This document shows, one piece after another, positions 2,848-59,071 of a stretch of DNA of 64,000 bases. A program made the translations under genes and the position numbers. The stretch comes from Escherichia phage Ge15. Location of the stretch: the sequence record PP359696.1; one strand, written 5' to 3'. A model generated the notes under the pieces. It was not told where the DNA came from, ran no database searches, and saw nothing but the letters and a program-made list of their open reading frames with translations. Every line of letters begins with the position of its first letter. Positions within the stretch are counted from its first letter, which is position 1.

Positions 2848-3560
2848 ATGAAACTAATCTTTTTAAGTGGTGTAAAGCGTAGTGGAAAAGATACTACTGC
2901 AGATTTTATTATGAATAATTATTCTGCAGTTAAATATCAACTTGCTGGTCCTATTAAGGATGCATTGGCTTATGCATGGGGTGTATTTGCAGCAAACACT
3001 GACTATCCTTGTTTAACTCGTAAAGAGTTTGAAGGAATTGACTATGATCGTGAAACTAATTTAAATCTGACTAAATTAGAAGTAATTACGATTATGGAAC
3101 AAGCATTTTGCTATCTTAATAGTAAAAGCCCAATTAAAGGTGTGTTTGTTTTTGATGACGCAGTTAATTTCGTAGCATTTAACAAGATTGCTGACGTTAT
3201 AAATAATATTGAAGATCAATGGTCAGTCCGTCGTCTGATGCAAGCCCTAGGTACGGATTTGATTGTTAATAACTTCGACCGCATGTATTGGGTAAAATTA
3301 TTTGCTTTAGATTATCTTGATAAATTTAACTCAGGTTATGATTATTATATCGTTCCTGATACTCGTCAAGATCATGAAATGGATGCGGCTAGGGCGATGG
3401 GTGCTACAGTAATTCATGTAGTTCGTCCTGGTCAAAAATCCAATGATACACATATTACAGAAGCTGGATTGCCAATTCATGATGGCGATTTAGTAATTAC
3501 AAACGATGGTTCTCTTGAAGAACTTTTTTCTAAAATTAAAAATACACTAAAGGTACTATA

Positions 3561-3561
<1 letters not shown>
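2848..3561 (+). CDS. 1: deoxynucleoside monophosphate kinase gp1
   Basis: 237-aa ORF with P-loop GVKRSGKDT; sequence recognised as T4 dNMP kinase. Confidence 0.9.
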
Positions 3562-4258
<697 letters not shown>

Positions 4259-4261
4259 TTT

Positions 4262-4312
4262 CACAAAGTTGTTTACATACTGATGAGGTAGTGATACTAT
4301 TACCTCATCAAA
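4262..4312 (+). promoter_or_regulatory. early promoter embedded in stem-loop (PeSL-like cassette)
   Basis: TTCACAAAGTTGTTTACA -35 region, GTGATACTAT -10 region, flanked by inverted arms TGATGAGGTA / TACCTCATCA. Confidence 0.6.
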
Positions 4313-4330
4313 ATTAATTAGGAAAATAAA

Positions 4331-4588
4331 ATGAAAACTTTCAAAGAGTTTGCTACAAAAACTACTATCACTGAATCTTCCCACGGTATGGAAGTAAAGC
4401 TTGGAATGGCTTTAGCTGAAGCTGAGCGTCTTTTCTCTCGTATTAAAGAACTTGCTGCTGCAGTCGATCCTTCATCTTTTAAAGGAGACCAAACTAAAGT
4501 TAAAGCACTTTTAGCATTATGCTCAGATGCAGGAGAAATTGCTAAAAATGGTTCTAAGATGAAGAAACGATTAGAAGATTTAAAATAA
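4331..4588 (+). CDS. internal-protein-like small protein with capsid-targeting-like N-terminus (IPI locus)
   Basis: 85-aa ORF starting MKTFKEFATKTTITE, in the position of T4 ipI next to 57B. Confidence 0.6.
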   Translation: MKTFKEFATKTTITESSHGMEVKLGMALAEAERLFSRIKELAAAVDPSSFKGDQTKVKALLALCSDAGEIAKNGSKMKKRLEDLK

Positions 4589-4591
4589 TTT

Positions 4592-4645
4592 CACAAAGTT
4601 GTTTACACAGGGTTTTAGTAGTGATACTATTACTCTATCAAAACA
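4592..4645 (+). promoter_or_regulatory. early promoter / stem-loop cassette (second copy)
   Basis: Near-identical TTCACAAAGTTGTTTACA ... GTGATACTATTAC core as at 4262. Confidence 0.55.
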
Positions 4646-4664
4646 AAACCAAATGGAAATCAAA

Positions 4665-4898
4665 ATGAAAACTTTCAAAGAGTTTATCGCTGAATCTTCT
4701 GATGTAAAAGTTGAGTTTATTTACACCGGCAAGAAAGATAAAATGGGTGAAATGCCTCATGGAGTTCTTCGTGATGCATTAGATAATTTCGGTCAACTCG
4801 CCGCAGAAGATTACGGTGATAAAATTGTTGTTACTGGTCCTGCTGCAGTTATTGAAAAATGGGCAGCAGAAAATAAATCAATTTTTCGTAAAAAATAA
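4665..4898 (+). CDS. internal-protein-like small protein with capsid targeting sequence
   Basis: 77-aa ORF from ATG 4665, N-terminus MKTFKEFIAE matches the T4 internal-protein CTS consensus. Confidence 0.6.
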   Translation: MKTFKEFIAESSDVKVEFIYTGKKDKMGEMPHGVLRDALDNFGQLAAEDYGDKIVVTGPAAVIEKWAAENKSIFRKK

Positions 4899-4940
4899 GT
4901 TTACTTTTAGATAGGGTAGTGATACTATTACCCTATCAAC
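4899..4940 (+). promoter_or_regulatory. early promoter / stem-loop cassette (third copy)
   Basis: GTTTAC then GATAGGGTA-GTGATACTAT-TACCCTATC inverted repeat around the -10. Confidence 0.55.
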
Positions 4941-4956
4941 TACCGAGGAGAATAAA

Positions 4957-5142
4957 ATGAAACGTTGTGAATTAATTCGAAATGTTGCTATTGCAATTTC
5001 TGCTTCCGCTTTTAGTTTTTCAATGTTTGTTGGATTTATATGCGGATTATTGACTACAGCAGAAAATGTGTTTTCACTTGTAGTAGCATTTTTAATTGGT
5101 TTAATTGCTATCGTTATGGATAAAATTTCTAAAGGTGAATAG
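4957..5142 (+). CDS. small membrane protein, unknown function
   Basis: 61-aa ORF with GAGGAG RBS, two hydrophobic helices. Confidence 0.5.
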   Translation: MKRCELIRNVAIAISASAFSFSMFVGFICGLLTTAENVFSLVVAFLIGLIAIVMDKISKGE

Positions 5143-5143
5143 A

Positions 5144-5524
5144 ATGTACAAAGTGTATGCGGATTATCAGGCTAATCCATCTGAAAAGCCAGGTTGTCAA
5201 ATTGGATGGGCTCATGATACTTTGCTTGAAGCAGTAGATGCTGCTCAAAAATTGGGATATAAATATGTAGAGATTGTTCAACCGTCAGGAAAGGTTATTA
5301 CTCTTGAAGAGTTCAATAACATTAAACCAAACTTTTTACTTTTTGCAGGTGATAATTATTATCCTCGTGGTGGATATGCTGATTTAATCGCGAAAGCCGC
5401 TACCGAAGATGAACTCCGTGATATTATCAAAGAAAATGAAAACAAACCAGATTATGGTTCTAATCGCTTTGATTGGTGGCAAATTGTAAATGCCAATACG
5501 CATACTATTGTTGATGAAGGTTGA
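5144..5524 (+). CDS. hypothetical protein
   Basis: 126-aa ORF from ATG 5144 preceded by AGGTGA; co-directional early array. Confidence 0.55.
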   Translation: MYKVYADYQANPSEKPGCQIGWAHDTLLEAVDAAQKLGYKYVEIVQPSGKVITLEEFNNIKPNFLLFAGDNYYPRGGYADLIAKAATEDELRDIIKENENKPDYGSNRFDWWQIVNANTHTIVDEG

Positions 5525-5814
5525 TAATGATTCTTTACGCGAAAGTATCATCCATTGAAAATGGATATAAATATGATCAAGACGCGGCTAAAGCCTTGAT
5601 TGATGATTATGGCATTTTAACATATTTTGAAGTTGAAAAGGTTTACATTGACCGTTCATCTTCACAAGTTAAATTAGTGAAGGAAGACCGTAAATTTAAT
5701 ACAGTAAATTTTGATTTCTTTATCGAAACAGAAAAAGGTCCTCTTGAATATGATATTTTCAAGAATCCTTTGGGTCTTGAATGTATCGTAAATATGTATC
5801 ATCATAAATGGTAA
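5521..5814 (+). CDS. hypothetical protein
   Basis: 97-aa ORF overlapping upstream stop (coupled). Confidence 0.5.
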   Translation: MIMILYAKVSSIENGYKYDQDAAKALIDDYGILTYFEVEKVYIDRSSSQVKLVKEDRKFNTVNFDFFIETEKGPLEYDIFKNPLGLECIVNMYHHKW

Positions 5815-5911
5815 ATATGCTTTAAGAATTATTTGTTATTATTAATTCATACCGCACTGATTAATACCCTCTATCATCAAGGGTTCTTGTTTGAGAGCCT
5901 TTGTTAATAAT

Positions 5912-5984
5912 TGGGAATTAGCCAAGTTGGTAAGGCACTGGATTTTGATTCCAGGATGCAAAGGTTCGAGTCCTTTATTCCCAG
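5912..5984 (+). tRNA. tRNA-Gln (anticodon UUG)
   Basis: Cloverleaf by eye: acceptor TGGGAAT/ATTCCCA, anticodon loop TTTTGAT, T-arm GGTTCGAGTCC; abuts tRNA-Leu as a dimeric precursor. Confidence 0.85.
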
Positions 5985-5985
5985 C

Positions 5986-6073
5986 GCGAGAATGGTCAAA
6001 TTGGTAAAGGCACAGCACTTAAAATGCTGCGGAATTATTTCCTTGTGGGTTCGAGTCCCACTTCTCGCACCAA
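5986..6073 (+). tRNA. tRNA-Leu (anticodon UAA)
   Basis: Acceptor GCGAGAA/TTCTCGC, anticodon loop CTTAAAA, long variable arm, encoded CCA. Confidence 0.85.
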
Positions 6074-6077
6074 ATTT

Positions 6078-6151
<74 letters not shown>

Positions 6152-6155
6152 ATTT

Positions 6156-6806
6156 ATGACTCGTCGTGAGACGCTCAGTTCTTTATTAGGGACTGATATG
6201 CATTTTTATCTTTATAAAATAACAAATAAAATTAATAATAAAATTTATATTGGTGTGCATTCTACCGAAAATTTAGATGATGGATATATGGGTTCTGGTA
6301 AATTATTAAAAAGAGCCCAAGATAAATATGGTATAGAAAATTTTTCTAAAGAAATATTAGAGTATTTTGATGATAAAGAATCTATGCTTGAAGCCGAGAA
6401 AAATATTGTCACAGAAGAGTTTTTAAATAGACCAGATGTGTATAATTTAAAACTTGGAGGTGAAGGTGGATGGGACCATATAAATAATTATCCTATGACA
6501 GATCAGCAACGCGAATTAATTTCATTGGGTGTTAAAAAGGCACATTCTAACGGAAAATTAAAAGGATGGTCTTCAAATGGATTAATGAAGAATGGCTTTA
6601 CTGGTAAAACTCATTCTCAAGAAGCTAAACGTAAAATAGCAAAAGCAAACGAAGCAAAAGTTTCTGCGGATGAAAGAAAAAGAAGAATAGAAATTTCTAA
6701 ATTATATGATTTTTCTAAGCGTGGTGAATTATCTAAATATGCTAAGCATATTGGCGTAAGTCATACTCAAGCAAAAAGAATTCTAAATCAAATTAACAAT
6801 ATATAA
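6156..6806 (+). CDS. segB: GIY-YIG homing endonuclease SegB-like
   Basis: GIY-YIG motifs (YLYKITNKINNKIYIGVH ... YMGSG) in an ORF embedded in the tRNA cluster as T4 segB; true start may be ATG 6198. Confidence 0.75.
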   Translation: MTRRETLSSLLGTDMHFYLYKITNKINNKIYIGVHSTENLDDGYMGSGKLLKRAQDKYGIENFSKEILEYFDDKESMLEAEKNIVTEEFLNRPDVYNLKLGGEGGWDHINNYPMTDQQRELISLGVKKAHSNGKLKGWSSNGLMKNGFTGKTHSQEAKRKIAKANEAKVSADERKRRIEISKLYDFSKRGELSKYAKHIGVSHTQAKRILNQINNI

Positions 6807-6812
6807 ATATTT

Positions 6813-6902
6813 GGAGGCGTGGCAGAGTGGTTTAATGCACCGGTCTTGAAAACCGGCAGTCGCTCCGGCGACTCATAGGTTCAAATCCTATCGCCTCCGC
6901 CA
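6813..6902 (+). tRNA. tRNA-Ser (anticodon UGA)
   Basis: Acceptor GGAGGCG/CGCCTCC, anticodon loop CTTGAAA, long variable arm, CCA encoded. Confidence 0.85.
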
Positions 6903-6908
6903 GTTTTT

Positions 6909-6984
6909 GCTGATTTAGCTCAGTAGGTAGAGCAACTCACTTGTAATGAGAAGGTCGGCGGTTCGATTCCGTCAATCAGCACCA
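6909..6984 (+). tRNA. tRNA-Thr (anticodon UGU)
   Basis: Acceptor GCTGATT/AATCAGC, anticodon loop CTTGTAA, T-arm GGTTCGATTCC. Confidence 0.8.
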
Positions 6985-6985
6985 A

Positions 6986-7060
6986 GGCCCTGTAGCTGGA
7001 AGGTTCAAGCAAGCGACTCATAATCGCCAGATGGTGGTTCAATTCCACCCAGGGCCACCA
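6986..7060 (+). tRNA. tRNA with CAU anticodon (Ile, lysidine-type as in T4, or Met)
   Basis: Acceptor GGCCCTG/CAGGGCC, anticodon loop CTCATAA, T-arm GGTGGTTCAATTCCACC. Confidence 0.75.
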
Positions 7061-7066
7061 AATTAA

Positions 7067-7153
7067 GGGGAGTTATCCCGTAGAGGTAGCGGTGTGGACT
7101 GTAAATTCATTGTCATTGCGACTCGGGTGGTTCGACTCCACCACTCCCCACCA
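7067..7153 (+). tRNA. tRNA-Tyr (anticodon GUA)
   Basis: Acceptor GGGGAGT/ACTCCCC, anticodon loop CTGTAAA, long variable arm resembling E. coli tRNA-Tyr, T-arm GGTGGTTCGACTCCACC, CCA. Confidence 0.7.
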
Positions 7154-7157
7154 ATTT

Positions 7158-7232
7158 GGATGTGTAGCTCAATGGCAGAGCGATCGCCTGTTAAGCGATT
7201 GGTTATAGGTTCGAATCCTATCACGTCCGCCA
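7158..7232 (+). tRNA. tRNA-Asn (anticodon GUU)
   Basis: Acceptor GGATGTG/CACGTCC, anticodon stem ATCGC/GCGAT with loop CTGTTAA, T-arm GGTTCGAATCC. Confidence 0.8.
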
Positions 7233-7346
7233 AATTTGTGACAACTGTCACATTAATATCTACTTGACGCGATTATAGGGGTTGAACTGATCACTCTTCT
7301 CTTAATTTCGTGTGAAGACATCTTGATTGTTGGAGTAGGTATTAAT

Positions 7347-7422
7347 GTGGCCGTAGTTCAGTTGGTAGAACTCGAGATTGTGATTCTCGTAGTCATGGGT
7401 TCGACTCCCATCGGTCACCCCA
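7347..7422 (+). tRNA. tRNA-His (anticodon GUG)
   Basis: Extra 5' G, anticodon stem CGAGA/TCTCG with loop TTGTGAT, T-arm GGTTCGACTCC, CCA. Confidence 0.8.
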
Positions 7423-7426
7423 ATTA

Positions 7427-7502
7427 CGGGGCATAGCTCAGAAGGAAGAGCAAGGACCTTCTAAGTCCTAGGTCGTAGGTTCGATCCCTACTGCCTCGAC
7501 CA
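7427..7502 (+). tRNA. tRNA-Arg (anticodon UCU)
   Basis: Acceptor CGGGGCA/TGCCTCG, anticodon stem AGGAC/GTCCT with loop CTTCTAA, CCA. Confidence 0.85.
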
Positions 7503-8210: not shown

Positions 8211-8218
8211 TATAAATA
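8211..8218 (+). promoter_or_regulatory. late promoter TATAAATA
   Basis: Exact TATAAATA about 37 nt upstream of ATG 8255. Confidence 0.6.
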
Positions 8219-8254: not shown

Positions 8255-8728
8255 ATGAAATCATATGCTCAATTTTTAAATGAAGCGGTGTTAAATGAAG
8301 CATCTAGCACCGAAATTCAAGCTGTCGCAAAAGCTGCCATTGCCGCGGGTAAATATTCCTATAAAGATGCTTCCGATGAATCACGATTCCAATTTGCTCG
8401 TGATATGAAAGCCGAAGGATTTACAGGGAATGCAGTTAGTATGGCTTGGAAAAGTTTAGTTGCTACTGGAGCTGCTTTTGCAAAGGCTTCAGGTAAACCT
8501 GCTCCTAAGGCTGACCCTAAAGCAGCACAAGAGAAAAATATTGTTAAAGGAATTATCTCCAAATATGAAGCTATCCTTAAAGAGCTTTTAGTAATCAAAA
8601 CTGAAGGCCAAAAACTAGCTCGTGCTTATAGTTTCAAAGATAACCCACATGCTCACTCTCTTGAGTATGTTGAAGACATTCAAAAAATTATTAAAGACCG
8701 CATTTGGTCTGCTAAACAAATCAAATAA
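8255..8728 (+). CDS. internal-protein-like late protein with capsid targeting sequence
   Basis: 157-aa ORF, N-terminus MKSYAQFLNEAVLNEA resembles the internal-protein CTS with L-x-E cleavage sites; late promoter upstream; terminators on both sides. Confidence 0.6.
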   Translation: MKSYAQFLNEAVLNEASSTEIQAVAKAAIAAGKYSYKDASDESRFQFARDMKAEGFTGNAVSMAWKSLVATGAAFAKASGKPAPKADPKAAQEKNIVKGIISKYEAILKELLVIKTEGQKLARAYSFKDNPHAHSLEYVEDIQKIIKDRIWSAKQIK

Positions 8729-12581: not shown

Positions 12582-13112
<531 letters not shown>

Positions 13113-13171: not shown

Positions 13172-13588
13172 ATGACTCGTATTAATTTGACTTTAGTATC
13201 TGAACTTGCTGATCAGCATTTAATCGCAGAATACCGTGAATTGCCACGTGTTTTTGGTATAGTTCGTAAACACGTGGCAAATGGTAAGCGGGTTAAAGAT
13301 TTTAAAATATCTTCCGAGTTTATTTTAGGTTCTGGTCATGTTACGTTCTTTTACGATAAGTTAGAATTTTTGCGAAAGCGTCAATCAGACATTATAACGG
13401 AATGCTTAAAACGTGGGTTTAGTATAAAAGATACTGAAGTTCCTGACATCAGTGATATTCCAGCAGAATGGAAAAATGATTATAATCCATGCAAATCAGC
13501 TATTAAATTGAGTCAACAACGACTCGATGAAAAAATTTTAATGAAGCCACACTGGTACAAGTATTACGGCAAAAATATTTACATTTAA
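13172..13588 (+). CDS. denV: endonuclease V (pyrimidine dimer DNA glycosylase) DenV
   Basis: 138-aa [32 protein letters not shown]..., recognised as T4 endonuclease V. Confidence 0.95.
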
Positions 13589-13597
13589 AGGAAACAT

Positions 13598-13915
13598 ATG
13601 AAAACGTATAAAGAATTTATTGCAGAATCTGCCGCAGGACAACGTGTAGAAGGCGGTTATATTTGGATTGAAGAAGTTGAGCCACCTAGTCGTACTTCTA
13701 CTGGTAAATGGAAAATTACTGTCGATGGTCCTGGCGGAAAACGCAGAACTTTAAAAGAAATTAATGGATATTATAGTGAAGCTCTTTCAGACGCGGGCAC
13801 TTATATGATGCAAATTATGATTAAAAATCCAGAAAATCGTTTTGCAGCTAGAGTTTTCCGCCGCATTGGAAATAAACTTTACGATGCATATTCTAAAAAT
13901 TTTCCTAAAGCATAA
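13598..13915 (+). CDS. internal protein (IPII-like) with capsid targeting sequence
   Basis: 105-aa ORF with N-terminus MKTYKEFIAE, the canonical T4 CTS. Confidence 0.7.
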   Translation: MKTYKEFIAESAAGQRVEGGYIWIEEVEPPSRTSTGKWKITVDGPGGKRRTLKEINGYYSEALSDAGTYMMQIMIKNPENRFAARVFRRIGNKLYDAYSKNFPKA

Positions 13916-13931
13916 AAATTAAAGGAAACAT

Positions 13932-14405
13932 ATGAAAACATATCAAGAATTTATTACTGAAGCAGCTATTAATTCTCAAATTATTGCTGAATCTTTTACT
14001 GATCTTTTGAAATTTAAAAAAGGTCAAAAAATCACTGCTGTATTGGATGATGGTACAGAAGTTGAGATGGATGTACAGGGATATAATTATGCAGTAGATG
14101 GAAAACTGTATAATAAATCTCATGCTAAATTTGATTCATTTGACGACTTTGTTAATACAGTTGAAGATGAAAAAACTCGTAGATCCATTGCAACTGGTGA
14201 TGCTAAGGTTCTTATGGCACACGGCCATGAACGCATTCGCGCTAAGCAGAATAAAATGGGCGAAGATAATTTCGCATTAGTTGGTTATCAATCTGGTAAA
14301 CAAACTTATGGTTATCAGCGTACTGCTACCATGTATAACAAAAATGGTAAAATCGCTTTCGTGAATAGTAAAGGTTCTGTTCAGTACGTTAAATCGTTCA
14401 AATAA
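13932..14405 (+). CDS. internal protein (IPIII-like) with capsid targeting sequence
   Basis: 157-aa ORF with N-terminus MKTYQEFITE; shares upstream AAAGGAAACATATG element with the preceding gene. Confidence 0.7.
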   Translation: MKTYQEFITEAAINSQIIAESFTDLLKFKKGQKITAVLDDGTEVEMDVQGYNYAVDGKLYNKSHAKFDSFDDFVNTVEDEKTRRSIATGDAKVLMAHGHERIRAKQNKMGEDNFALVGYQSGKQTYGYQRTATMYNKNGKIAFVNSKGSVQYVKSFK

Positions 14406-24284: not shown

Positions 24285-24308
24285 ATTTCAAAAATTTTTC
24301 ACAAAGTT

Positions 24309-58905: not shown

Positions 58906-58909
58906 TATG
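58861..58909 (+). repeat. 49-bp direct repeat copy 2
   Basis: Second copy of the junction repeat, 358 bp downstream of the first. Confidence 0.85.
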
Positions 58910-59071
58910 AAAACATATAAAGAATTTATTAAAGAAGATATGGTAGCTGGAGATTCAGGTGGTAATCCTGAAAATATCTCTACTGGAACAACGTCAGGTG
59001 CTGTAGTAAATAAAGGTCCTGAACAGATTCCTAAAAAGAAAAAAGAGGAATCTAAAGAAAAAGAAGAGTAA
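58907..59071 (+). CDS. mini-protein with capsid-targeting-like N-terminus
   Basis: 54-aa ORF (below track cutoff), MKTYKEFIKEDMVAG..., Lys/Glu-rich tail, immediately upstream of primase. Confidence 0.45.
   Translation: MKTYKEFIKEDMVAGDSGGNPENISTGTTSGAVVNKGPEQIPKKKKEESKEKEE

Follow-up and report, generated by a model that had tools for sequence, protein, structure and literature searches.

Repoila, Tetart, Bouet and Krisch (EMBO J 1994) reportedly described in T-even phages a flanking element of ~70 bp carrying a T4 early promoter, with the proposal that internal-protein (ip) genes are shuffled by recombination through it. Earlier publications already cover the element, where it lies and the idea of shuffling (Repoila 1994; Arbiol 2010; Comeau 2014); its description dates from 1994, and it received the name PeSL-like in 2010. 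PeSL-like elements are stated to flank both internal-protein loci of T-even phages (PMC2839356, citing Repoila 1994; PMC4122927), and Arbiol et al. (2010) considered the T-even elements to be analogs, not homologs, of the PeSLs of RB49 and phi1 (PMC2839356). RB49-type PeSLs combine near-perfect sigma-70 hexamers (TTGACA/TATAAT) with G(n)-loop-C(n) stems; their promoter and terminator activity has been measured and mini-circle formation demonstrated. It is highly probable that three repeat units of the phage studied here represent T4-type early-promoter/stem-loop cassettes, that is, PeSL-like elements of the T-even IP locus acting as promoter, read-through hairpin and portable homology patch. 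Like the PeSLs of RB49/phi1 (PMC2839356) and those of PST/T4 and nt-1/KVP40 (PMC4122927), they are composites of an early promoter and a stem-loop, flanked by a stop codon on one side and a Shine-Dalgarno sequence on the other, often with the stem over the -10 box, and enriched in hyperplastic regions at the junctions of indels and replacements.

The window, the whole stretch of 64,000 nucleotides analysed, belongs to a Tequatrovirus (T4/T2/T6-like), and the closest record found is phage GiZh, with 98.8% identity across 3561-5920. At least 299 database phages have a single place matching at least 80% of this interval, with which a stable ipV-ipVI order within the subclade of the window is consistent. 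As reportedly described in 1994, the T-even elements share with the window the locus (57B to the tRNA region), the class of ip genes, whose N-terminal leader is conserved, and the ~70-bp promoter element; no substantive difference separates the two, and the window represents a further isolate, nearly identical to GiZh at the locus. The variable locus lies between two conserved anchors, 57B on the left and trna.4 on the right, and a trna.4-like gene is found in most related loci. Between these anchors, 39 loci hold 0-4 ORFs with a capsid-targeting sequence (CTS), representing at least 17 families. Locus content varies across T4-like phages rather than being conserved gene for gene, and the hyperplastic accessory locus beside 57B that an earlier note on this DNA had proposed is borne out by these counts. 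The features of the locus are compiled in Table 1.

Table 1. Features of the 57B-trna.4 locus, in window coordinates
Feature	Position	Strand	Evidence or composition
Gene 57B (Acb1 anti-CBASS family)	3803..4258	+	Pfam PF23474 Acb1, E = 2.6e-60; gp57B in GiZh and T4 annotation
Repeat unit 1, ~110 bp	4243..4351	+	Direct repeat with 4573-4685, ~80% identity
Cassette 1 early promoter	-35 TTTACA 4272-4277, 17-nt spacer, TG 4292-4293, -10 TACTAT 4295-4300	+	Promoter scan, 9/12 matches with TG
Cassette 1 hairpin	Arms TGATGAGGTA 4281-4290 and TACCTCATCA 4301-4310, around extended -10	+	Folding
ipV-like internal head protein, 85 aa	4331..4588	+	phrog_3499 internal head protein, E = 1.2e-49; ipV in GiZh
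Repeat unit 2	4573..4685	+	ipV 3' end (EDLK*), promoter with weak hairpin, Shine-Dalgarno, CTS codons 1-7
Cassette 2	4602..4636	+	-35 TTTACA 4602-4607, TG 4622-4623, -10 TACTAT 4625-4630; promoter scan
ipVI-like internal virion protein, 77 aa	4665..4898	+	phrog_8111, E = 3.3e-51; ipVI in GiZh
Cassette 3	4899..4937	+	GTTTAC 4899-4904, TG 4920-4921, -10 TACTAT 4923-4928; regex scan
Cassette 3 hairpin	4910-4937, arms GATAGGGTA and TACCCTATC	+	RNA -16.4 kcal/mol, z = -4.3
trna.4-like hydrophobic protein, 61 aa, without CTS	4957..5142	+	phrog_1692; annotated trna.4 (predicted membrane protein) in both T4 and GiZh

The direct-repeat units, three in number (4243-4313, 4573-4643 and 4871-4941), all contain the exact 16-mer GTAGTGATACTATTAC, and the 13-mer GTGATACTATTAC has exactly three occurrences across the 64 kb window, each within one of them. 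The earlier note had the three repeats share a motif as well as a core; this stands for the 16-mer but not for the 18-mer TTCACAAAGTTGTTTACA, which only cassettes 1 and 2 contain, cassette 3 retaining just GTTTAC. Since unrelated early promoters at 24298 and 37066 also have exact copies of TTCACAAAGTTGTTTACA, it represents a generic early-promoter upstream sequence. Unit 1 comprises the 57B 3' end with its stop codon (the final 5 codons of 57B, DDLK*, fall inside the unit), an A/T-rich stretch, the -35 box, the hairpin with the -10 box, the Shine-Dalgarno sequence and CTS codons 1-7. The placement is intergenic, from stop codon to Shine-Dalgarno: cassettes 1 and 2 have TTTAAAATAATTTCACAAAGTT and cassette 3 has TTTTTCGTAAAAAATAA, with the upstream TAA inside each. 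As previously noted, every repeat precedes a small ORF, starting at 4331 (ipV-like), 4665 (ipVI-like) and 4957 (trna.4-like) downstream of units 1, 2 and 3, respectively.

Each cassette contains a T4-type early promoter, composed of TTTAC[A/T], a 17-nt spacer and a TG-extended TACTAT, with the -10 box lying within an inverted repeat. The hexamer pairs are TTTACA-N17-TACTAT in cassettes 1 and 2 (consensus scan) and TTTACT-N17-TACTAT in cassette 3, and TG precedes all three -10 boxes. A regex scan revealed ~20 further plus-strand sites with a cassette-like promoter (GTTTAC, a spacer of 16-18 nt and a -10 box that is mostly TG-extended); the minus-strand matches of the same scan appeared chance-like when inspected by eye. 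Cassette 3 is presumably the early promoter of the trna.4-trna.2-tRNA unit. The three promoters fit the published consensus of PST/T4 PeSL promoters, TTTACW-N17-TAYWAT (PMC4122927). In contrast to the RB49-type elements, the window cassettes have TTTACA/TACTAT hexamers and mixed, A/T-richer and weaker stems (GATGAGGTA, GATAGGGTA), and they lie outside the PeSLs sensu stricto of RB49/phi1 as defined by hexamers and a G(n)-loop-C(n) stem.

The ORFs downstream of units 1 and 2 (ORF1, ipV-like; ORF2, ipVI-like) have their CTS in common and nothing else. Both begin with a capsid-targeting N-terminus of ~10-15 aa ending in (L/I)-x-E, the established cleavage rule of the T4 prohead protease: in ORF1 the CTS is MKTFKEFATKTTITE, whose I-x-E site occupies residues 13-15 and is followed by S, and in ORF2 it is MKTFKEFIAE, followed by S. 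The same type of leader also heads 64 ORFs of related loci. On these features ORF1 and ORF2 qualify as T4-type internal proteins and are predicted to be packaged into heads and injected together with the DNA, and the names ipV/ipVI (Ip5/Ip6) in GiZh and PST point to homologues in T2, T6, RB15 and RB70. The ORF at 4957 (ORF3) encodes 61 aa, begins MKRCELIRNVAIAISA / MKRCELIRNVAIAISASAFSF and is hydrophobic as judged from its translation; the family that it matches, phrog_1692, is of unknown function, and its N-terminus, when checked for a CTS, contained none. The internal-protein-like N-termini attributed earlier to two of the ORFs are thus confirmed by the CTS in ORF1 and ORF2 and by the phrog_3499 and phrog_8111 matches, whereas the wording that each cassette drives a CTS-like gene applies to these two and not to the third gene, trna.4.

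As RNA, the cassette 1 hairpin reaches -17.4 kcal/mol (z = -6.2), with 0/200 shuffles as good, and as DNA it reaches -8.1 kcal/mol (z = -4.3); the RNA fold of cassette 3 was likewise equalled in 0/200 shuffles. The Watson-Crick arms GATGAGGTA/TACCTCATC of cassette 1 and GATAGGGTA/TACCCTATC of cassette 3 differ at two positions, both of them compensated. The hairpin of cassette 2 (4609-4636) is weak and interrupted, consisting of AGGGU/ACUCU and UAGUA/UACUA at -9.9 kcal/mol (z = -2.1), with its centre 3 nt further upstream than in the other two. The stem-loops with compensatory arms reported before apply to the strong hairpins of cassettes 1 and 3. An Rfam scan of 4100-5200 (E <= 1) returned just two sub-threshold chance snoRNA matches, so a known RNA family is absent there. 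The window hairpins showed no occlusion of the Shine-Dalgarno sequence: the stems stop at 4310 and 4937, and the Shine-Dalgarno sequences lie at ~4320 and ~4945, leaving a gap of 8-9 nt. An outer helix pairs with the Shine-Dalgarno sequence in the trna.4 cassettes of related loci L003, L008, L019, L034, L025, L031 and L035. T4 hairpins with an internal promoter are said to control translation of gene e, soc, 49 and I-TevI, McPheeters et al. 1986 being an example. The window cassettes resemble these hairpins in having the promoter inside the hairpin and the structure in read-through transcripts, not in those from their own promoter; in the T4 cases, however, the Shine-Dalgarno or AUG is tied up in the hairpin and it is a late promoter that lies inside, whereas the window stems end before the Shine-Dalgarno.

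The covariation set comprised 45 distinct cassettes with a 17-nt spacer, taken from the window and 38 related loci. Counted over the cassettes as they stand, shared ancestry included, 64.6% of cells pair, compared with 30-52% with a slid partner, and the covariation score of 0.275 (versus 0.206 in shuffles) was reached in 0/500. Among 17 cassettes picked because they pair in the same register, 86.3% of cells pair, double changes are seen in 8 of 12 pairs, and RNAalifold yields 8 bp, five of them with compensatory changes. For all 45 cassettes RNAalifold gives no consensus structure, because the position of the hairpin shifts between lineages, moving by 1.5-3 nt relative to the -10 box. There are ~12 unrelated arm sequences among related cassettes, every one complementary, and stems that fail to covary, which the earlier note had named as evidence against its reading, are not what the 45 cassettes display. 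In certain related cassettes the hairpin is absent or broken, which together with the shifts in position indicates that it is dispensable, at least transiently. Isolated stem mismatches on the promoter strand are G.T/T.G in 13 cases and A.C/C.A in two, an excess that favours a sense-strand structure, although it amounts to ~8 versus 2 as independent events and part of the positions are constrained by the -10 hexamer.

Breakpoints of homology with T4 and two metagenomic relatives lie within the cassettes or the first 7-11 codons. T4 homology stops at 4365 and picks up again at 4919, while homology with the related locus L032 stops at 4351 and resumes at 4899. Another locus, L033, lacks exactly the stretch between repeat units 1 and 2, its unit 1 homology stopping at 4351, and this deletion is compatible with an excised mini-circle between tandem cassettes. 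The trna.4 cassette of T4 is a hybrid of the left half of cassette 2 and the right half of cassette 3, joined in the shared core. Chimeric and duplicated cassettes are present in L018 and L025, and L018 also contains a slippage-like duplication of GATACTATTACCTCATCAA. Many ip genes of related phages have no cassette and start at or beside the previous stop codon; ip genes can be expressed and exchanged without cassettes. The outcome of shuffling is visible in these comparative breakpoints, and from it we infer the recombination mechanism outlined below.

In the favoured explanation, each cassette would be a strong sigma-70-dependent early promoter (A/T-rich upstream region, GTTTAC, 17-nt spacer and TG-n-TACTAT), predicted to fire its adjacent downstream gene (ipV-like; ipVI-like; trna.4 and then the tRNA cluster) minutes after infection. 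The cassette 1 start, predicted near A4307 from the usual -10 to +1 distance, would sit in the 3' arm of the inverted repeat that brackets the -10 box, so that transcripts from the cassette's own promoter could not form the hairpin. Published RNA-seq maps of T4 start sites or terminators were sought, and nothing usable was found for the 57B-trna.4 locus. The hairpin would form only in upstream read-through RNA, with the preceding cassette or the late-promoter-like TATAAATA (position 3198) as possible origins, and its most likely role is that of a boundary element in such RNA, either as an attenuator or as a 3'-end/processing hairpin. The ~110-bp unit is the sole sequence common to otherwise unrelated ip genes; spanning the upstream ORF end, the promoter/hairpin core and the first 7-11 CTS codons, it would offer the recombination machinery of the phage a portable patch of homology, by which ip genes may be deleted, inserted and swapped between 57B (Acb1) and trna.4.

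Several alternatives bear on what the hairpin does. It appears doubtful that the stems are ordinary factor-independent terminators of the upstream gene, overlapping the next promoter by chance, as in the 'composite promoter-terminator' reading of PeSLs. The stems do lie directly 3' of stop codons, their sense-strand G.U bias suits an RNA element, and an RB49 PeSL stem-loop cut lacZ expression about as much as the rrnB T1 terminator. However, a terminator scan of 3500-6200 found 0 sites, and none of the three stems is followed by a U-tract, the sequence continuing A-rich as AAAATTAA, AAAACAAA and ACTACCGA; the hairpin is not a canonical intrinsic terminator. Moreover, at 9-13 bp and A/U-rich, the stems are weaker than the assayed G(n)/C(n) stems of RB49, and terminator activity, which is known only from that G/C-rich stem-loop, may not transfer to them. 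Action at the DNA level is unlikely as well, although either DNA strand folds at -7 to -8 kcal/mol with z about -3 to -4: a cruciform or single-strand hairpin at the promoter would here be a preferred site for nicking, branch resolution (e.g., by T4 endonuclease VII) or template switching, and the stem-loop itself, beyond the homology at its flanks, would drive cassette exchange and mini-circles. The T4 crossover between cassettes 2 and 3 maps to the loop/core and the GATACTATTACCTCATCAA duplication in L018 resembles slippage, but the core is the longest exact identity, so that homology alone predicts a crossover there. Furthermore, the stems are short and A/T-rich, and the sense-strand excess of G.T over A.C speaks against a symmetric double-strand cruciform. 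Arbiol 2010 speculated on a recombination protein binding the stem-loop and mini-circles were demonstrated for RB49/phi1, yet a dedicated recombinase was not found in these phages in that work (PMC2839356).

A further reading, in which the palindrome is the operator of a dimeric DNA-binding regulator that turns the early promoters off or on during infection, is extremely improbable. The inverted repeat has its centre at the -10 box, where repressor operators are typically found, and the 16-nt core is the same in all three cassettes, but the arms change completely between lineages and still remain complementary, a signature of nucleic-acid structure and not of a protein site, on which grounds the operator was rejected. 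The conserved core is accounted for by the extended -10 consensus, seen also at early promoters without a hairpin, and the symmetry centre moves by 1.5-3 nt. It is very unlikely that the repeats merely remain from a tandem duplication of paralogous ip genes together with their promoters, without a special role in shuffling. Units 1 and 2 do reach into the upstream ORF ends (DDLK*/EDLK*) and into the CTS codons, as duplication would have it; simple gene duplication was rejected because ORF1 and ORF2 are unrelated in their mature parts; in addition, the gene behind the third unit lacks a CTS, and the same ip families occur elsewhere in other orders and numbers with breakpoints in the cassettes.

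The interpretation given in the earlier note, namely PeSL-type cassettes, is supported with minor corrections by the early promoter, the overlapping and covarying stem-loop, the position from stop codon to Shine-Dalgarno, the variable neighbourhood and the breakpoints at cassettes. As with integron gene cassettes and lambdoid 'morons', to which Arbiol 2010 drew the parallel, small accessory genes here move as units into a defined locus and bring along the signals for their own expression. Unlike integrons, however, integrase and attC/attI sites are absent, and exchange seemingly proceeds by general homologous recombination over ~50-110 bp of promoter and leader. It is highly improbable that the hairpin, instead of being a terminator or a by-product, is under selection as a strand-specific element of RNA (or single-strand DNA) that separates read-through from own-promoter transcripts, is extended in some lineages so as to occlude the RBS and is perhaps the target of a phage factor for cassette exchange. 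If the hairpin were read by such an exchange-targeting factor, the island of Acb1 and ip genes would gain an integron-like acquisition system.

With 57B being Acb1 (anti-CBASS), the 57B-trna.4 locus is an anti-defence island, and the T4 internal proteins Ip1-3 have been shown to block particular GmrSD type IV restriction enzymes (PMC12373910). Cassettes of promoter and leader would explain how T-even phages rapidly swap host-range determinants without disturbing neighbouring genes. They may also be of use for the annotation of T4-like genomes, for phage engineering and for finding injected anti-defence proteins, candidates for which are the small ORFs between 57B and trna.4 with an MKT[YF].EF leader.

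A database similarity search with region 3561-5920 returned 851 matching phage records, and in at least 299 of them, T6, PST and many coliphages included, one place covers at least 80% of the region; the closest record, Enterobacteria phage GiZh (Tequatrovirus), is 98.8% identical over the full length. On the + strand the order is gp3, gp1 (dNMP kinase), 57A, 57B, three small ORFs (ORF1-ORF3, table), trna.3-like, trna.2-like and a 10-tRNA cluster. According to its annotation, T4 has one gene only, ipI, at the position of the window's internal-protein (ip) genes. The tRNA cluster (5912-7502, +) holds a 216-aa GIY-YIG-type homing-endonuclease ORF (6156-6806; phrog_314, E = 1.5e-55) between tRNA-Gly and tRNA-Ser, the place occupied by tRNA-Pro in GiZh; the window is without tRNA-Pro and carries tRNA-His (7347-7422), absent from GiZh, and segB of T4 occupies another place in the cluster.

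Features of the 57B-ip locus in the window, and cassettes with an outer helix in loci of related phages (L numbers)
Feature	Position	Strand	Annotation in GiZh
57B	3803-4258	+	
Direct-repeat unit 1	4243-4313		
ORF1	4331-4588	+	ipV
Direct-repeat unit 2	4573-4643		
ORF2	4665-4898	+	ipVI
Direct-repeat unit 3	4871-4941		
ORF3	4957-5142	+	trna.4 homologue
Outer-helix cassette, L003	5664		
Outer-helix cassette, L008	5664		
Outer-helix cassette, L019	5670		
Outer-helix cassette, L034	5790		
Outer-helix cassette, L025	6179		
Outer-helix cassette, L018	6570		
Outer-helix cassette, L031	7324		
Outer-helix cassette, L035	6017		
Outer-helix cassette, L035	7271		

The earlier note placed a small gene with a capsid-targeting leader behind each of the three cassettes (early promoter plus hairpin). 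This holds for ORF1 and ORF2, which match phrog_3499 (internal head protein) and phrog_8111 (internal virion protein) and on comparison have nothing in common beyond the N-terminal leader MKTFKEF...(I)xE, their mature parts being unrelated. It does not hold for ORF3, a hydrophobic sequence whose translation has no such leader; it matches phrog_1692 (function unknown in PHROG), and its T4 and GiZh homologues are annotated as predicted membrane proteins. Four further window ORFs (+) have capsid-targeting-type N-termini: 8255-8728 (phrog_2280, with late-promoter-like TATAAATA upstream at 8211), 13598-13915, 13932-14405 and 58907-59071 (54 aa, phrog_1823, distant from both IP loci). ORFs 13598 (function-unknown family only) and 13932 (internal-virion-protein PHROG) lack a promoter cassette of their own and follow ORFs 12618-13112 and 13172-13588, which we take, from their translations alone, to be T4 e and denV.

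All three direct-repeat units contain the exact 16-mer GTAGTGATACTATTAC, and the 13-mer core reported earlier has three exact copies in 64 kb, each within the cassettes. Units 1 and 2 take in the final five codons of the ORF before them (DDLK*/EDLK*) and extend as far as leader codon 7 (~110 bp, ~80% identity). The 18-mer TTCACAAAGTTGTTTACA, described as common to the three repeats, belongs to cassettes 1 and 2 but not to cassette 3, which keeps GTTTAC alone; further exact copies lie at 24298 and 37066, and 3 more sites match it with 2-3 mismatches. These sites are other early promoters, so that TTCACAAAGTTGTTTACA represents a generic T4-type early-promoter upstream/-35 sequence rather than a cassette-specific one. 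All three cassettes have TG before the -10 and TTTAC(A/T), 17 nt, TACTAT, fitting the PST/T4 consensus TTTACW-N17-TAYWAT for promoter-early stem-loops (PeSLs; PMC4122927).

RNA folding gave stems of 12-13 bp for cassette 1 (-17.4 kcal/mol, z = -6.2; arms GATGAGGTA/TACCTCATC) and cassette 3 (-16.4 kcal/mol, z = -4.3; arms GATAGGGTA/TACCCTATC), both arm pairs being Watson-Crick and neither energy being equalled in 200 shuffles. The proposal that the arms differ yet stay complementary stands for these two (two differences, both compensated); in cassette 2, pairing is limited to an interrupted 5+5-bp structure (-9.9 kcal/mol, z = -2.1). The window hairpins stop short of the Shine-Dalgarno sequence, no U-tract follows them, a terminator scan of 3500-6200 gave 0 sites, and no Rfam family matched in 4100-5200. 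A hairpin is present at ~8 of ~22 early promoters in the window and is therefore not a general early-promoter property. Away from the ip locus, hairpins spanning the -10 at five others (57067, 21549, 9236, 9628 and 13117, +; -21.5 to -10.4 kcal/mol) represent PeSL-like elements; most remaining early promoters, e.g. 24309, 8899, 51351 and 26010, have none.

From 36 related loci gathered via 57B, plus T4 and GiZh, all early-promoter-like sites between 57B and the tRNAs were extracted, yielding 57 distinct sequences. In most of these an inverted repeat flanks the -10; its arms fall into about a dozen unrelated sequences, each with a complementary partner (e.g. TGATGAGGTA, GATAGGGTA, GGTAGGACTA, AGGGCTAT, AGGGTTAT, GTGTAGGGATA, AGGTCTATAG, GATGGGATAA and GTGTAGG). 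Stems lacking covariation, the outcome that the earlier note named as contrary to its reading, were not what we found: in a gap-free alignment of 45 distinct spacer-17 cassettes under the pairing scheme of cassette 1, the covariation score was 0.275 versus 0.206 +/- 0.014 in shuffles (reached in 0/500), and 64.6% of cells were paired versus 30-52% with the 3' partner slid, both uncorrected for shared ancestry. In a subset of 17 picked by register, 86.3% of cells were paired and 8 of 12 pairs had two-sided changes, again uncorrected for ancestry; RNAalifold on this register-picked subset gave 8 bp, with compensatory changes in 5.

Compared across T4-like loci, the 57B-tRNA interval varies in gene content and in family positions, with breakpoints at cassettes, and the description of a hyperplastic locus beside 57B is borne out. 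Between 57B and trna.4, 39 loci have 0-4 leader-bearing ORFs (one in 14 loci, two in 14), which, grouped by mature part, form at least 17 families, a given family occupying differing positions in different loci. One related locus (L032), with a 57B 100% identical to the window's and a single, different ip gene, has nucleotide homology over 3561-4351 (leader codon 7) and again from 4899 (-35 of cassette 3); homology with T4 stops at 4365 and returns at 4919 (-10 core of cassette 3), and L033 is without exactly the stretch between repeat units 1 and 2. Set against window 4575-4668 and 4873-4960, the T4 trna.4 cassette (L038 3512-3600, minus strand) is a hybrid that follows cassette 2 in its left half and cassette 3 in its right, switching within the GTGATACTATTAC core that the two share. 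L018 and L025 have chimeric cassettes whose left and right arms belong to different types, and L018 cassette 6175-6245 contains a tandem duplication of GATACTATTACCTCATCAA (-10 plus 3' arm) that looks like a scar of slippage or unequal recombination.

Each cassette promoter would fire early with host sigma-70 polymerase, and at the usual spacing the predicted starts (~4307, 4637 and 4935) fall inside the 3' arm, so the hairpin would be confined to read-through RNA that started at promoters upstream. Gene 1 contains a candidate source, late-promoter-like TATAAATA at 3198 (+); late transcripts from it could read through 57A and 57B and on into the ip genes and would contain the cassette hairpins. 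Our best guess is that the hairpin serves as an attenuator or marks a 3' end or processing site of upstream messages. Several other lineages have an extra outer helix (table), absent from the window's cassettes, in which the spacer start pairs with the downstream gene's Shine-Dalgarno (e.g. TCTCCATTTG...CAAATGGAGA, TTCCTTG...CAAGGAG); in most, that gene is a trna.4 homologue. Judged from sequence, this helix would mask the ribosome-binding site, and only in read-through RNA; a hairpin over the Shine-Dalgarno is a classic means by which T4 silences read-through transcripts.

Measured from the start site, the symmetry centre lies at -11.5, -13 or -14.5 according to lineage, indicating that RNA polymerase contacts do not fix the stem's position. 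Isolated stem mismatches on the promoter strand are G.T/T.G in 13 cases and A.C/C.A in 2 (p = 0.007 on raw counts); counted as independent events, these reduce to roughly 8 versus 2, so the bias only suggests a structure in sense-strand RNA or single-strand DNA. An action of the inverted repeats at the DNA level in recombination seems to us less likely than a hairpin in read-through RNA.

The cassette element is already known. PeSLs were defined in RB49/phi1 by Arbiol et al. 2010 (PMC2839356), a passage of which links T-even IP-locus elements to Repoila et al.; these are built on T4 early promoters, have weaker A/T-rich stems and are regarded there as analogs, not homologs, of RB49 PeSLs (PMC2839356). 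Comeau et al. 2014 catalogued the PeSLs of PST, which is 97.5% identical to the window over 92% of 3561-5920, and restated the IP-locus link (PMC4122927). With early promoters, covarying stems, a variable locus and breakpoints at cassettes, the PeSL-type interpretation in the earlier note is correct, and its observation is real, with minor errors.

57B matches Pfam Acb1, an anti-CBASS protein (E = 2.6e-60), which places the variable ip array directly beside another anti-defence gene. T4 Ip1-3 have been reported to inhibit specific GmrSD type IV restriction enzymes (PMC12373910), and internal proteins have been described as a diverse anti-restriction set with the capsid-targeting sequence as the sole common part. 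Together, these observations identify the 57B-ip locus as an anti-defence island, and the sequence comparisons show that ip genes are deleted and replaced at the homology shared in cassette plus leader.
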